DNA of 64,000 bases, taken from the NCBI GenBank assembly GCA_022568135.1, contig JADFFQ010000009.1:4741-68740 (forward strand). Direction: 5' to 3'. The DNA is from Planctomycetota bacterium. Lineage in GTDB: Bacteria > Planctomycetota > Phycisphaerae > Phycisphaerales > SM1A02. The translations under genes and the position numbers were made by a program. Below the pieces are notes generated by a model, which was given only the letters and a program-made list of their open reading frames with translations, made no database searches and was not told the DNA's origin. This document shows positions 33,076 to 35,600 of the stretch, piece by piece. Position 1 is the first letter of the stretch. Each line of letters begins with the position of its first letter.

Positions 33076-34272
33076 ATGACCACCGCCAGCACACCGTCGT
33101 CAAGGCCCAAGACCGGCCCAGAGACCGATCCGCTGCGATTGATCGACGTGGATCACGTGCGGTTCTACGTCGGCAACGCCAAGCAAGCGGCGTATTTCTA
33201 CGCGCACTGTTTCGGCTTCCAGGTCGCGCAGCTTGCGGACCTCACCACCGGTTGCCGCGAGGAAGCGAGCTACCTGCTCACCCAGGGCAACATTCGTTTG
33301 GTGCTGAGCACCGGGTTGCACAAAGACCACGCCGCCCAGCGCGAGGTGATGCGCCACGGTGACGGGATCAAGGACATCGCCTTCACCGTCCGCGACGCGG
33401 CCGCCGCCTACGAACAAGCCATCAAGAACGGCGGGGAATCTGCCTATGAACCCGTCGAGATGACTGACGATTCCGGGGACGGCACGGTGGTCGTGGCCGG
33501 AATCAAGACCTTCGGCCGATGTGTCCACAGTTTCGTCTCCCGCAACGGCCGGTACAAACTGGAGAACATTCAGGGCGGCGGCCCGTTCATGCCCAGGTTC
33601 GAGCCGGTGGAGTCATTTGCGCTCAACGAGTACAACCAGGCCCATCCCTGTGGGCTGATGTACGTCGATCACTGCGTGGGCAACGTCGAGCTGGGGAAGA
33701 TGAACCACTGGGTGAAGTGGTATGAAGAGGTGCTCGGCTTCAAGCAGTTCAAGCACTTCGACGACAAGGACATCTCGACGGAGTACTCGGCCCTGATGTC
33801 CAAGGTGATGGACTCAGGTTTCGGCACTATCAAGGTGCCCATCAACGAGCCGGCCCACGGCAAACGCAAGAGCCAGATTCAGGAGTACCTCGACTGGCAC
33901 GATGATGAGCCGGGCGTGCAGCACCTGGCCTTCCGCACCGATGATGAGCTGGCCAGCGTGGCGGAGCTGCACCGCCGCGGCGTGGATTTTCTACGCATCC
34001 CCGATGAGTACTACCAAACCGTCTGGGACCGCGTGTCCAAGATGGGCTGGGAGATCAAGGAGGATCACCAGCGCATCCGGGACCTTGGCATCCTCGTTGA
34101 CGCTGATGACGAGGGGTATCTGCTGCAACTGTTCACCAAGCCGCTTCAGGACCGCCCGACGCTGTTCTTCGAGATCATCTGCCGCCGCGGGTCACAGAGC
34201 TTCGGCAAAGGCAACTTCAAGGCCCTCTTTGAGTCGCTGGAGTTGGAGCAGGCCCGCCGAGGGAATCTATGA
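33076..34272 (+). CDS. hppD: 4-hydroxyphenylpyruvate dioxygenase.
   Basis: Two VOC modules. The C-terminus is [35 protein letters not shown], an HPPD signature. AGGAG lies upstream of the ATG at 33076. Confidence 0.9.
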   Translation: MTTASTPSSRPKTGPETDPLRLIDVDHVRFYVGNAKQAAYFYAHCFGFQVAQLADLTTGCREEASYLLTQGNIRLVLSTGLHKDHAAQREVMRHGDGIKDIAFTVRDAAAAYEQAIKNGGESAYEPVEMTDDSGDGTVVVAGIKTFGRCVHSFVSRNGRYKLENIQGGGPFMPRFEPVESFALNEYNQAHPCGLMYVDHCVGNVELGKMNHWVKWYEEVLGFKQFKHFDDKDISTEYSALMSKVMDSGFGTIKVPINEPAHGKRKSQIQEYLDWHDDEPGVQHLAFRTDDELASVAELHRRGVDFLRIPDEYYQTVWDRVSKMGWEIKEDHQRIRDLGILVDADDEGYLLQLFTKPLQDRPTLFFEIICRRGSQSFGKGNFKALFESLELEQARRGNL

Positions 34273-34754
34273 CCTCTACTCGTCCGATCCGCGCTTACGC
34301 CGATACGTCCGTTTTCGGCGGATGCTTCGAGGAACGATTTCAGGATGCAAGCAAGCGATTCTTCGAGGGAGTCAACGCCGGACGGTTGATCGTCCTGCTG
34401 GGTGCGACGACCGAAGCGGAGTTAGCACTCGCGCCGGGTCGCGTTCAGGAGATCGTTGCCAGCCTATCCGACGATCGAATCATCCGTTGCCCCATAACGC
34501 CCGATGTTGCCGAACTGCGCCAAGCCTATCTCGATGCCGGAGTCCTGGGGACGGGATCGTTTGATGATGCGACTCATGTGGCCATCGCGACAGCCCATAA
34601 CGCCGATCTGTTGGTGAGTTGGATTTTCCGGCATATTGTCAACTACGATAAGATACGTGGATTCAATGCCGTCAACCTGCGGCTGAACTACCGATCGCTG
34701 AGCATCCACTCCCCCCCAGAGATTGTGTATGGCAAAGACGAAGAACGACTTTGA
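34269..34754 (+). CDS. PIN-domain protein (VapC-like); its start overlaps the hppD stop (ATGA).
   Basis: IRAYADTSVFGG (first acidic residue), TTEAEL and DDATHVAIATAHNADLLVS motifs. Confidence 0.55.
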   Translation: MTSTRPIRAYADTSVFGGCFEERFQDASKRFFEGVNAGRLIVLLGATTEAELALAPGRVQEIVASLSDDRIIRCPITPDVAELRQAYLDAGVLGTGSFDDATHVAIATAHNADLLVSWIFRHIVNYDKIRGFNAVNLRLNYRSLSIHSPPEIVYGKDEERL

Positions 34755-34956
34755 CTGTGTTCAAATGAAGCGGGAAATTCAGGCCCGGGTCGCGGCGGAG
34801 ACCAAGGGCATGACCGCCGAACAGCGGGACGCTTACATTCGCGAGCGAGCCGACGCTTTTGCCCAGAAGATGGGCTGGATCTACGAATCGGTCCCCGATG
34901 AACACGGGCACTATCACGTCAGGCGAATCGACGACAAGGGTGGCAAGCCCGGATGA
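34729..34956 (+). CDS. Small hypothetical protein (76 aa) that overlaps the 3' end of the PIN gene.
   Basis: Protein-like composition (MAKTKNDFDCVQMKREIQARVAAETKGMTAEQRDAYIRERADAFAQKMGW...). No homology was recognised. Confidence 0.3.
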   Translation: MAKTKNDFDCVQMKREIQARVAAETKGMTAEQRDAYIRERADAFAQKMGWIYESVPDEHGHYHVRRIDDKGGKPG

Positions 34957-35052
34957 ATCTGCCGCCGCCGCTCGCAGAGCTTCGGCAAAGGCAACTTCAA
35001 GGCCCTCTTTGAGTCGCTGGAGCTTGAACAAGCCCGCCGAGGGAATCTGTAG
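34956..35052 (+). repeat. Copy 2 of the hppD 3' end (about 97 bp, about 95% identical to 34175..34272, including the stop codon).
   Basis: atctgccgccgc...ttcggcaaaggcaacttcaaggccctctttgagtcgctggag(c/t)tg(a/g)a(c/g)a(a/g)gcccgccgagggaatct(g/a)t(a/g). Confidence 0.85.
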
Positions 35053-35077
35053 AGCTCCCCCAGAGTGAAGGCTGTTG

Positions 35078-35314
35078 ATGAAATCAAAGCGCGCGAATTC
35101 ACTGCGGTACACGGTCGTTATCGAGAAGGCGGATGGAAACTTTTCTGCGTACGTTCCTGATCTGCCCGGCTGTGTAGCAACGGGACGGACGCGGGCGATC
35201 GTTCTCAGGCGGATTGCTCAGGCGATCCATATGCACGTGCAGGGCTTGAAGGAAGATGGTCTGCCCGTCCCGAAGCCCGCCGCAACCGCAGAGTATGTGG
35301 AGACCGCAGCATGA
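35078..35314 (+). CDS. hicB: HicB-family antitoxin-like protein (orphan; no hicA was recognised).
   Basis: [47 protein letters not shown], the HicB/UPF0150 pattern. GAAGG lies 7 nt upstream of the ATG. Confidence 0.6.
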
Positions 35315-35326
35315 TCGCGTCACGCC

Positions 35327-35451
35327 ATACCCGCCCGACGCTTCTCTTGGAGATCATTTGCCGCCGTGGGTCGCCGTCCTTCGGGAAGGGAAACTTCCAA
35401 GCCCTGTTCGAGTCCCTGGAGCTGGAGCGGCGGCGGCGTGAAAACCTCTAA
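35327..35451 (+). repeat. Copy 3 of the hppD 3' end (about 125 bp), diverged at the nucleotide level but encoding [39 protein letters not shown].
   Basis: About 75% nt identity to 34153..34272, mostly synonymous differences. A 42-codon ORF starts at the ATG that overlaps the hicB stop (ATGA). Confidence 0.8.
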
Positions 35452-35600
35452 TCTGAGCGGCTTGTGCGCCTGGGGGATATGATGCCGACAGGCGAGATCC
35501 CAGGACCCATGTATGCACGAGCGGGTCGCTTCACACACCCAGCCTTGCTCTCTGGCGGATCGCCGCCACGACGATCATCCAGAGCGATCGGGCGCGAACG

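Follow-up and report, generated by a model that had tools for sequence, protein, structure and literature searches.

To our knowledge, the movement of toxin-antitoxin modules and tiny cassettes between genomes without a mobility gene is poorly understood. The CIMEs derived from ICESt1/ICESt3 at fda in Streptococcus thermophilus are decayed, integrase-less derivatives of integrative elements that insert at gene 3′ ends and bring a replacement end with them; remnants of this type are flanked by direct repeats of the target end, leave the gene intact, accrete in tandem, and lack an integrase. Integrons and CALINs hold small promoter-less cassettes, often toxin-antitoxin pairs, in one orientation at a fixed point, and newcomers push the older cassettes back. 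Sequential displacement arrays form a third group (Kirchberger et al., 2017; PMC5361080; Jackson et al., 2009, as cited in that paper). In rhs C-terminal displacement, in the CDI orphan cdiA-CT/cdiI modules, and in the T6SS effector-immunity arrays of Vibrio cholerae, a conserved gene of full length precedes truncated copies of its own 3′ region, each with the genes that formerly came after it. For the T6SS immunity arrays and the rhs orphans, the published model describes the same architecture as that reported below and proposes homology-facilitated illegitimate recombination, which is reported to be rare in experiments (PMC5361080).

The window analyzed here, a 64,000-nt stretch of DNA from an uncultured planctomycete of the order Phycisphaerales, contains a locus in which an intact hppD gene is followed by two further copies of its own 3′ end. 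As in the displacement arrays, the newest unit adjoins the intact gene, unstacked alternatives exist in sister strains (L179, as well as L001 and L180 without the third tail or the FkbM gene), and no recombinase accompanies the array, homology-anchored illegitimate recombination having been proposed instead. The locus works like this family of arrays yet is not a member of it, since it has no polymorphic toxin as anchor, its cargo is no toxin tip, and across 83 lineages the HppD tail is almost invariant. The described arrays are anchored by a polymorphic toxin whose tip varies, whereas here the anchor is a metabolic enzyme with a conserved C-terminus; their cargo consists of effector-immunity pairs, whereas here it comprises type II toxin-antitoxin-like modules and a methyltransferase. 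T6SS arrays are retained through the need for immunity, whereas the hppD stack would persist through addiction or because downstream genes such as hmgA are needed. We consider it somewhat better than an even bet (probability roughly 0.55) that the locus is a stack of alternative hppD 3′-flank haplotypes that arose by sequential displacement without a dedicated recombinase.

The resident gene hppD (4-hydroxyphenylpyruvate dioxygenase, 398 aa; 33076-34272; this and all features below on the + strand) is intact, matches the Pfam Glyoxalase and HPPD N-terminal domains, and is 99% identical to its counterpart in L001 and 70-81% identical to those of 79 other Phycisphaerales species. Its last 93 to 120 nt, including the stop codon, are present in three copies in one orientation and one frame, and a direct-repeat search recovered them as a single three-copy family (34152-34275, 34932-35055, and 35331-35454) spaced 780 and 399 nt apart. 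Copy 1 is the native end with its TGA stop (34152-34272), which is repeated from 34177 in copy 2 and from about 34152 in copy 3. Copy 2 (34957-35052) holds the last 31 codons of an hppD allele and a TAG stop, and 30 of its 31 residues are the same as in the native end; copy 3 (35332-35451) holds the last 39 codons of a diverged allele and a TAA stop. When the downstream DNA was searched by blastn with the hppD end, copy 2 was matched at 34956-35047 (92.4% over 92 nt, E 5e-35) and copy 3 at 35330-35430 (81% over 102 nt, E 5e-20); copies 1 and 2 are 92-95% identical over 93 nt, and copies 1 and 3 are 76% identical across the full 117 nt. A profile of the HppD C-terminus (n=80) matches both extra copies in frame (copy 2, E 1e-18; copy 3, E 1e-20). 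The repeat search, blastn, and these in-frame matches bear out the three copies reported in a preliminary description of this DNA; copy 3 has kept its coding frame, and 32 of its 39 residues are identical to those of the native end. A stop codon terminates each copy, and homology between the copies ends there every time, the flanks of donor and recipient diverging from that point. The 5′ limits, counted from the stop-codon end, are about -95 nt in the window and L001, about -90 in L087 and L020, about -117 in copy 3, and about -34 in the L029 group, and hence form one cluster but no single site.

The arrangement was found, whole or in part, in five assemblies, namely the source scaffold of the window (L173) and contigs from ERZ27267519, ERZ27267515, ERZ23499034, and Logan SRR12886465. 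ERZ23499034 and SRR12886465 may share a study or sample with the window, and at least two assemblies are independent of the window source. All three copies lie within a single contig in four of the five (L173, L174, L185, and L186), and the L175 contig starts inside copy 2. This recurrence, in at least two independent assemblies and across all copies in four, rules out an assembly artefact, which had been named as a possible objection.

The genes between hppD and the next enzyme of the pathway form small, co-oriented cassettes with small gaps and no promoter of their own, stacked behind a fixed site; the whole array reads in one direction without convincing terminators, and its single promoter-like match, inside the PIN gene, is no more than expected by chance. 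The start codon of the gene that directly follows hppD (34269-34754, 161 aa) overlaps the hppD stop codon (ATGA), as had been noted, and in four other lineages the two called genes likewise share 4 nt. The protein itself has no direct Pfam match; its assignment as a PIN-fold (VapC/FitB-like) protein, made earlier from the sequence, is upheld by homologues that carry PF13470 or PF01850 and by an AlphaFold model (pLDDT 91) whose top Foldseek matches are FitB, VapC2, VapC20, and Utp24. The acidic PIN residues (D12, E51, and D100) are conserved, the window alone has I in place of the nearly invariant N119, and the GC3 of the gene is 0.62 as against 0.75-0.83 in the neighboring genes. A small partner ORF (34729-34956, 75 aa from ATG) overlaps the 3′ end of the PIN gene and ends in a TGA that directly adjoins copy 2 in the same frame. 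It carries the conserved motif K.FDCV.MK, returned no Pfam, NCBIfam, or PADLOC match, and comes after the PIN gene in nearly all of about 90 loci examined; it is presumed to be the antitoxin. The pair resembles VapBC in its FitB/VapC-like PIN fold and its two small overlapping genes, but the canonical antitoxin lies upstream and has a DNA-binding domain, whereas here the PIN gene comes first, the partner ORF lies downstream and matches no family, and the module is translationally coupled to hppD with no promoter match of its own, in addition to the I at N119. Some metagenomic relatives of the PIN module (L150 and L128) sit in short-repeat arrays.

Behind copy 2, a 12-nt spacer and a hicA remnant, from the GTGAAGG start to just before the start of hicB, were delimited by alignment with L179 (35053-35077). 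The hicB antitoxin gene (35078-35314, 78 aa) matches Pfam HicB_lk_antitox, and as in HicAB systems its partner hicA is intact in L179, but in the window hicA is reduced to about 13 nt, apparently by a deletion between two TGAAGG microhomologies. The ATG of a further ORF overlaps the hicB stop; this ORF, previously given as 42 codons, has 46 (35311-35451), contains tail copy 3, and is also called as a gene in L174, L185, and L186. Copy 3 ends 150 nt upstream of an FkbM-family methyltransferase gene (35601-36410; Pfam and TIGR01444), the closest homologues of which are just 54-55% identical, the one examined having an unrelated gene context. An ICMT/PEMT-family membrane methyltransferase gene follows (36434-37033; Pfam and NCBIfam), which is the usual gene between hppD and hmgA in the closest relatives (L001, L002, L003, and L022), and then hmgA (homogentisate 1,2-dioxygenase; 37165-38436; Pfam HgmA_N and HgmA_C). 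Pfam confirmed the earlier calls of hppD, HicB, both methyltransferases, and hmgA.

The sister strains preserve the locus in simpler states. In L179, hppD is followed by the 12-nt spacer, an intact hicA, hicB, and ICMT, without the PIN gene and without extra tails. L001 has the order hppD-PIN-small ORF-tail 2-hicB-ICMT and lacks tail 3 and FkbM, and the short contig L180 repeats the tail 2-hicB-ICMT part as in L001. Tail 2 is therefore present in L001 and L180 and absent from L179, and tail 3 is absent from all three; compared with L001 and L180, the window has an extra tail 3 and FkbM, which act as one indel block (35340-36422, absent from L001). In L081, L086, and L181, hppD, PIN, and the small ORF occur without a second tail. 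The distance between hppD and hmgA ranges in relatives from 24 bp (L025) to more than 6 kb; the two genes are thus directly adjacent in some relatives, as would be expected if the intervening DNA was inserted, and the cassettes are polymorphic for presence or absence among the sister strains, in line with their earlier description as insertions. The sister strains define the units as hppD tail with PIN and small ORF, tail 2 with the deleted hicA and hicB, and tail 3 with FkbM and what follows. The brackets drawn in the preliminary description are consequently offset, each extra tail remaining joined to DNA that formerly followed hppD, and hicB, which had been taken for an orphan cassette bounded by copies 2 and 3, belongs to a decayed hicAB pair. 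Tail 2, the 12-nt spacer, and the GTGAAGG start of hicA have exactly the layout of the tail and hicA in L179; because of this continuity, tail 2 would be a displaced resident end and not a site borne by an element. Furthermore, hicB is about 95% identical to that of L001 in its 5′ half and about 65% identical in its 3′ half, with a recombination breakpoint at about 35190, and polymorphisms are distributed as a mosaic among copies 1 and 2 of the window and L001, both of which indicate that homologous exchange is active at the hppD locus.

The substitutions among the copies are those of coding alleles. Copies 1 and 2 differ by six synonymous and two non-synonymous substitutions (P = 0.003 under neutrality). 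Copies 1 and 3 differ by 18 synonymous and 10 non-synonymous substitutions (omega 0.10; P = 1.6e-5 under neutrality), distributed 5/5/18 over the codon positions, a result that agrees with the proposed derivation of copy 3 from a diverged homologue and identifies that homologue as a once-functional hppD. Judged by these patterns, each of the two extra copies is the tail of an hppD allele that once functioned: as the differences are mainly synonymous, each copy evolved in a working hppD before its displacement. Copy 3 carries six substitutions at positions that are invariant in 83 functional HppD tails and is now decaying, so that the expressed HPPD C-terminal peptide envisaged earlier is unlikely to matter.

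What is observed is that the hppD tail is repeated, that strains differ in the blocks they carry, that tail 2 runs on into the hicA remnant, and that the copies are allelic; from this we infer the recombination mechanism and the order of events. DNA from a related strain would arrive as an hppD end with its own downstream genes; its left side would recombine homologously inside hppD, and an illegitimate joint would connect its right end to a point within the resident hppD tail that precedes the stop codon, although entry of the incoming piece by single-crossover ("ends-in" or Campbell-type) recombination is an alternative. The outcome would be an intact hppD with the incoming tail and cargo, followed by the truncated resident tail and its former downstream genes. 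The locus may have begun as hppD-FkbM-ICMT-hmgA, of which tail 3 would be the relic; the arrival of hicAB would then have left tail 2, and the arrival of PIN and the small ORF would have produced the current end, tail 1. Subsequently, hicA would have been lost through deletion, and homologous exchange between strains, breaking within hicB and in or close to ICMT, would have reshuffled the blocks. The addictive, toxin-antitoxin-like nature of the cargo is a plausible reason for the persistence of such rare events. Variable 5′ limits of the copies are expected of illegitimate joints. By contrast, the joints crowd the last stop codon of the cargo, at 0 nt (small ORF), 17 nt (hicB), and 1 to 15 nt (L114, L153, and L020), a closeness that random incoming ends would not predict and that could reflect either defined element ends, and hence an unrecognized recombinase, or later trimming by deletion. 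Cargo-free 80-nt tandem repeats that include the hppD tail in three species (L029, L036, and L044) are likewise unexplained by cargo import, and no donor haplotype of the order hppD-hicA-hicB-tail 3-FkbM was found. Within Phycisphaerales, tail duplication was found at hppD in 4/80 species and at other genes in 0/631, a specificity that fits a generic host mechanism only if hppD-linked cargo is exchanged unusually often.

This specificity is also what serial site-specific integration would predict, as inferred in the preliminary description: small elements with an attachment site in the hppD end, served in trans by a tyrosine or serine recombinase, would leave the extra tails as attL/attR scars, in the manner of integron cassettes or CIMEs. 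Integrase targets typically show repeats that stop precisely where the target gene stops, cargo ends tightly abut the repeats, the cassettes are stacked in a single integron-like orientation, and three insertions whose cargo is different or has diverged (window copy 2, L087, and L020) have copies with almost one starting point (about -88 to -95 nt). Other copies begin at about -117 and -34 nt, however, and no recombinase gene is present in the gene tables of the locus, as had been stated for its immediate surroundings, or in the 25 listed families of 42 window ORFs (a further 24 families, each with one member, lie outside these); no recombinase family is common to at least two of the 136 ORFs downstream of hppD in the sampled relatives (single-member families being covered as far as the first 25), and a scan of phage and other viral contigs found none with the hppD tail. 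Both strands of the three copies fold no better than shuffled sequences (z -0.01 to +2.3), giving no attC-like structure. The continuity of tail 2 with the hicA flank, expected of a displaced host end, is compatible with integration but adds nothing in its favor, and the tail duplications that accompany the same PIN module at unrelated genes in other phyla would require many matching integrases. As in CIMEs, direct repeats of the target end (three tail copies) border the inserted DNA and hppD is intact, but no relative with an integrase was found at this site, the inner repeat limits are not constant, the units (0.4-1.1 kb) have no non-coding arms, and tail 2 is continuous with the old host flank. 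Unlike integron cassettes, the repeats are coding gene tails without an attC hairpin, each repeat precedes its unit instead of following the cassette, and no intI was found. The serial nature of the insertions thus stands, whereas an attP/integrase system is unlikely given that no recombinase family is shared by two or more of the 136 downstream ORFs, no viral contig scanned carries the tail, and the 5′ limits vary.

In a sub-variant of sequential displacement the repeats themselves are the vehicle: homologous recombination between tail copies would loop out a circle of tail and cargo, or fragmentation would give "ends-in" pieces, and RecA would re-insert these into the conserved hppD tail of relatives, where the structure would form anew. 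This is consistent with the mosaic exchange between the highly similar copies 1 and 2, with the conservation of the hppD tail across the order (median 83% nt identity), and with the 5′ limit shared by the homologous PIN modules of the window and L087. In its favor, too, the hppD-linked PINs form one clade although their hppD genes are not mutual closest relatives. This sub-variant leaves the origin of the first duplication unexplained, no circles were observed, and L081, L086, and L181 carry the module without a second tail; we regard it as quite improbable. Retention of the tails for a function, as ribosome-binding or coupling signals or as a promoter for the displaced downstream genes, could account for the near-identity to the native tail of the last 35-41 nt of the copies in L087 and the L029 group, the 5′ parts of which decay, as well as for the stop codon kept by all copies of the window and for the unidirectional array. 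Gene conversion explains that pattern equally well, however, the copies have neither an Rfam match nor a stable fold, copy 3 lies 150 nt upstream of FkbM, and the L020 copy has lost its stop codon, which makes such a function very unlikely. If slippage or unequal crossing-over had duplicated the tail locally in tandem, with later decay, the foreign-allele appearance of copy 3 would be an accident; this reading draws on the 80-nt repeats of L029, L036, and L044, which indicate that the site can duplicate locally. A dead duplicate would not be expected to differ mostly at synonymous sites, the DNA between the copies differs (PIN and small ORF versus hicB), and a sister strain has hicAB directly after hppD; for the window, the synonymous excess and the strain series bring local duplication close to refutation.

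Tail duplication also accompanies PIN modules elsewhere. The PIN gene and its small ORF have long been linked to hppD as a module, which occurs in at least five Phycisphaerales lineages, and PIN and small-ORF modules are flanked by direct repeats in 17/68 cases, as against 5/252 control windows. Around homologous modules, a 169-nt tail of an lptD-like gene in L114 and a 111-nt tail of ogt in L153 are duplicated, in both cases ending exactly at the stop codon, and the differences in the homologous stretches examined (in L114 the last 60 nt, with a small indel further upstream) are all synonymous. These duplications, behind different genes in unrelated bacteria, suggest a general route of cassette gain. 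In a further reading that we consider rather unlikely, the PIN and small-ORF modules, and perhaps hicAB, may be widespread recombinase-less "gene-tail hitch-hikers", promoter-less addiction cassettes that are glued to a conserved gene end, duplicate its tail by homology-anchored insertion, and become fixed as unlosable; or the hppD tail of Phycisphaerales may serve an unrecognized trans-acting recombination system as an integron-like attachment site.

If the hitch-hiker reading is true, it would provide a concrete mechanism for the movement of chromosomal toxin-antitoxin loci, and cassette gain by tail duplication can be searched for systematically. For annotation, the tail copies would be markers of past haplotype replacement and neither genes nor att sites. 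The locus is a readable record, in which three successive hppD tails are tied to their former neighbors and sister strains keep the intermediates, and it would take "sequential displacement" beyond the polymorphic toxin loci where it has been described until now, to include an ordinary metabolic gene.

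The end of hppD (33076-34272 in the window) is present three times: its last 93 to 120 nt occur twice more downstream, with orientation and reading frame kept, as tail copy 2 (34957-35052; 92% identity across 92 nt, E 5e-35) and tail copy 3 (35332-35451; 76% identity across 117 nt, best segment E 5e-20). A profile of 80 HppD C-termini matches both copies in frame (E 1e-18 and E 1e-20, respectively), and all three tails, including the native end (copy 1, 34152-34272), terminate in a stop codon. The window and ENA scaffold ZHOU22-1_SAMN16252683 scaffold_35 are identical in sequence and belong to a metagenome-assembled genome of Phycisphaerales; the closest public relative by HppD is the sister strain L001 (99% identical). 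The arrangement was found in this source scaffold and in contigs of four further assemblies, at least two of which are clearly independent of the source, and all three copies are spanned by four contigs; an assembly artefact is therefore ruled out. The triple structure noted in the preliminary description is real and unusual. Within the Band_7/SPFH gene, 216 nt (32008-32223) hold all 19 mismatches over 7 kb to the independent assembly L174, which indicates a probable short recombination tract in a strain that is otherwise identical.

Copy 1 is followed by a PIN gene (34269..34754), whose start overlaps the hppD stop codon (ATGA), and by a small ORF (34729..34956), its presumed antitoxin partner. 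The 161-aa PIN protein has no direct Pfam match; PIN families are present in its homologues, and the toxins FitB and VapC come closest to its AlphaFold model (pLDDT 91). An overlapping ORF of 55-85 aa with a conserved K.FDCV.MK motif lies directly after the PIN gene in almost all of the ~90 loci surveyed; the small ORF matches no known family in Pfam, NCBIfam, or PADLOC, and PADLOC assigns no defence system to PIN, the small ORF, or HicB. The identities of hicB, the FkbM-type and ICMT-type methyltransferase genes, and hmgA were confirmed with Pfam and NCBIfam, and no convincing terminator was detected between hppD and hmgA. At PIN codon 119 (34620-34628), the nearly invariant N of the SWNF motif, which is kept in L001, is replaced by I, and the toxin may be inactivated in the window's strain. 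Furthermore, a Pfam scan of the window ORFs revealed a second FkbM-family methyltransferase elsewhere and a fumarylacetoacetase, which catalyses the final step of this tyrosine-degradation pathway and is encoded apart from hppD and hmgA. Three tandem paralogous genes at 4067-8218 share common blocks that are 85-93% identical, and each terminates in two dockerin-like DGDG...D repeats of ~63 nt.

The differences between the tails are predominantly synonymous. Copies 1 and 2 differ by 6 synonymous and 2 non-synonymous changes (P = 0.003 if changes were random), and copies 1 and 3 by 18 and 10, respectively (omega 0.10), distributed as 5, 5, and 18 over the three codon positions (P = 1.6e-5). Each copy therefore diverged inside a working gene, and the synonymous excess rules out duplication in situ followed by decay. 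The copies are allelic hppD tails rather than decaying local duplicates, and the dN/dS comparison accordingly upholds the earlier view of copy 3 as a foreign gene end. Where 83 functional HppD tails show no variation, copy 3 carries the changes FF>LL, Q>P, K>Q, Q>R, and G>E, and its best identity to the sampled hppD tails is 79.5%. It has decayed since leaving a working gene, and given this decay and low identity, the 46-codon ORF that holds it probably has no function. A mosaic of polymorphisms shared among the window's copies 1 and 2 and L001 indicates continuing homologous exchange at the locus.

Three related haplotypes place the unit boundaries differently. The sister strain L179 (~95% identical to L001) has hppD, a 12-nt spacer, intact hicA, hicB, and ICMT, without PIN and without an extra tail. 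L001 has hppD, PIN, the small ORF, tail 2, hicB, and ICMT in this order, and the short contig of the sister strain L180 carries the tail 2-hicB-ICMT part as in L001. Among these haplotypes, only the window has tail 3 and FkbM added, and its block 35340-36422 corresponds to a few bases in L001. The 5′ half of hicB is ~95% identical between the window and L001 and the 3′ half only ~65%, placing a recombination breakpoint inside hicB. Behind tail 2 of the window come 12 nt and then GTGAAGG; behind the tail of L179 come 12 nt and then ATGAAGG, the start of hicA. From this matching layout, tail 2 is the truncated remainder of an hppD gene that once stood directly before hicAB, and hicA has apparently been lost from the window by deletion between two TGAAGG strings. 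The natural units are [tail 1-PIN-small ORF], [tail 2-hicA remnant-hicB], and [tail 3-FkbM-ICMT-hmgA]. The cassettes drawn earlier, bracketed by the tail copies, fail in their boundaries, the supposed orphan hicB being a decayed hicAB formerly directly behind hppD. For copy 3 and FkbM, no donor was found (no FkbM homologue exceeds 55% identity, and the one that was examined lies in an unrelated context); likewise, no other arrangement was found with the window's exact HicB, as all contigs carrying it show the window's arrangement. In L009, a locus of another lineage, a hicA directly behind hppD (11200-11402) is apparently frameshifted near its 5′ end and represents either a pseudogene or an assembly error of the metagenome-assembled genome.

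The region downstream of hppD is variable among relatives. Between hppD and hmgA lie as little as 24 bp (L025) or more than 6 kb, so that the proposed synteny check does reveal near-direct adjacency in some relatives, and the downstream content is not conserved (108 Pfam families in 136 ORFs). The closest PIN homologues (58-63% identical) lie directly behind hppD, with the 4-nt overlap kept, in L081, L086, L087, and L181, four further lineages of Phycisphaerales, of which L087 retains a degenerate second tail. The hppD-linked PINs form one clade, and their hppD genes are interspersed with PIN-less lineages; co-transfer of hppD and PIN as one unit is ruled out, since the HppDs of PIN-linked lineages are not mutual closest relatives. 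PIN and the small ORF are an old companion of hppD. An additional tail copy in L020 accompanies a 2.2-kb cargo of unknown genes. Behind hppD-PIN-small ORF in L086 (6001-7769) lie a HicB-like gene of unrelated origin, whose product shares 34% identity with the window HicB, and two further small ORFs, an arrangement that points to a separate build-up of antitoxin-like genes at hppD without detectable tail copies. The last 30 nt were repeated within 3 kb in 4 of 80 hppD genes vs. 0 of 631 other genes (≥200 aa) from the same 80 loci (P = 1.5e-4); the sole non-hppD match was a spurious opposite-strand ORF over the repeats of L029. Cargo-free tandem repeats occur in three other Phycisphaerales species (L029:11164-11365, L036:7299-7331, and L044:10081-10113), with 2 to 2.5 copies of a ~80-nt unit comprising the last 34 nt of hppD, including the stop codon, and ~46 nt more, identical or nearly so to each species' own hppD tail.

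A metagenome scan with the PIN alignment yielded 68 PIN and small-ORF modules with enough flank, and 17 of these are bracketed by locally derived direct repeats (22-169 nt) vs. 5 of 252 control windows (P = 7e-9). In two cases, both in unrelated bacteria, the repeat corresponds to the 3′ terminus of a genuine gene upstream and stops exactly at its stop codon: an lptD-like gene in L114 (169 nt; 3800-4913, contig Ga0302046_10000185) and ogt in L153 (111 nt; 428-1315, contig Ga0247727_10076198), with solely synonymous differences between copies within the homologous stretches examined. The remaining repeat-flanked modules are intergenic, and no conserved terminal motif or microhomology at the cassette ends was found across the 17 loci. 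Modules in L150 (3896-6593) and L128 (1-1595) lie within arrays of direct repeats (~50 nt each, at intervals of 500-1000 nt), which may be a separate phenomenon of cassette arrays.

The strain haplotypes and allelic tails bear out a serial insertion record at the hppD end, which had been attributed to site-specific integration leaving attachment-site scars. For an attP/integrase mechanism there is no positive evidence: as noted earlier, no recombinase is adjacent, and none appears in the locus gene tables, among the 25 Pfam families listed for 42 window ORFs, or among the 25 listed for 136 ORFs downstream of hppD in relatives. An attC-like or otherwise structured site is ruled out, as the DNA folds no better than shuffled sequence and has no Rfam match; a tRNA/tmRNA target is ruled out, the only tRNA being at 14006; and a scan of viral contigs contained no phage attP with an hppD tail.

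The locus fits sequential displacement behind hppD. Such displacement has been put forward for rhs orphans and for the immunity arrays of T6SS, where the mechanism suggested is homology-facilitated illegitimate recombination (PMC5361080). A strain whose hppD flank differs would supply DNA that pairs on its left side within hppD; the right end of this DNA would be joined inside the resident hppD tail, and the resident tail and its neighbours would be displaced downstream. Displacement of this kind would explain why the copies are allelic, why their homology stops at the stop codon, and why their inner limits vary, along with the tail 2-hicA continuity, the sister-strain intermediates, and the absence of a recombinase and attC-like structure. 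Three points are left unexplained, namely joints only 0-17 nt past the last cargo stop codon, the strong specificity for hppD, and the cargo-free tandem repeats in three species; they keep a site-specific system acting in trans alive as a rival, albeit an improbable one.

Our search found no specific literature report of toxin-antitoxin cassettes flanked by gene-tail duplications, the T6SS displacement paper (PMC5361080) being the closest. In contrast to the displacement arrays described there, the anchor here is a metabolic gene and the cargo is toxin-antitoxin-like; on this analogy, the locus is seemingly of the displacement-array type and new in both respects, and it provides a testable lead on the movement of toxin-antitoxin-like cassettes.
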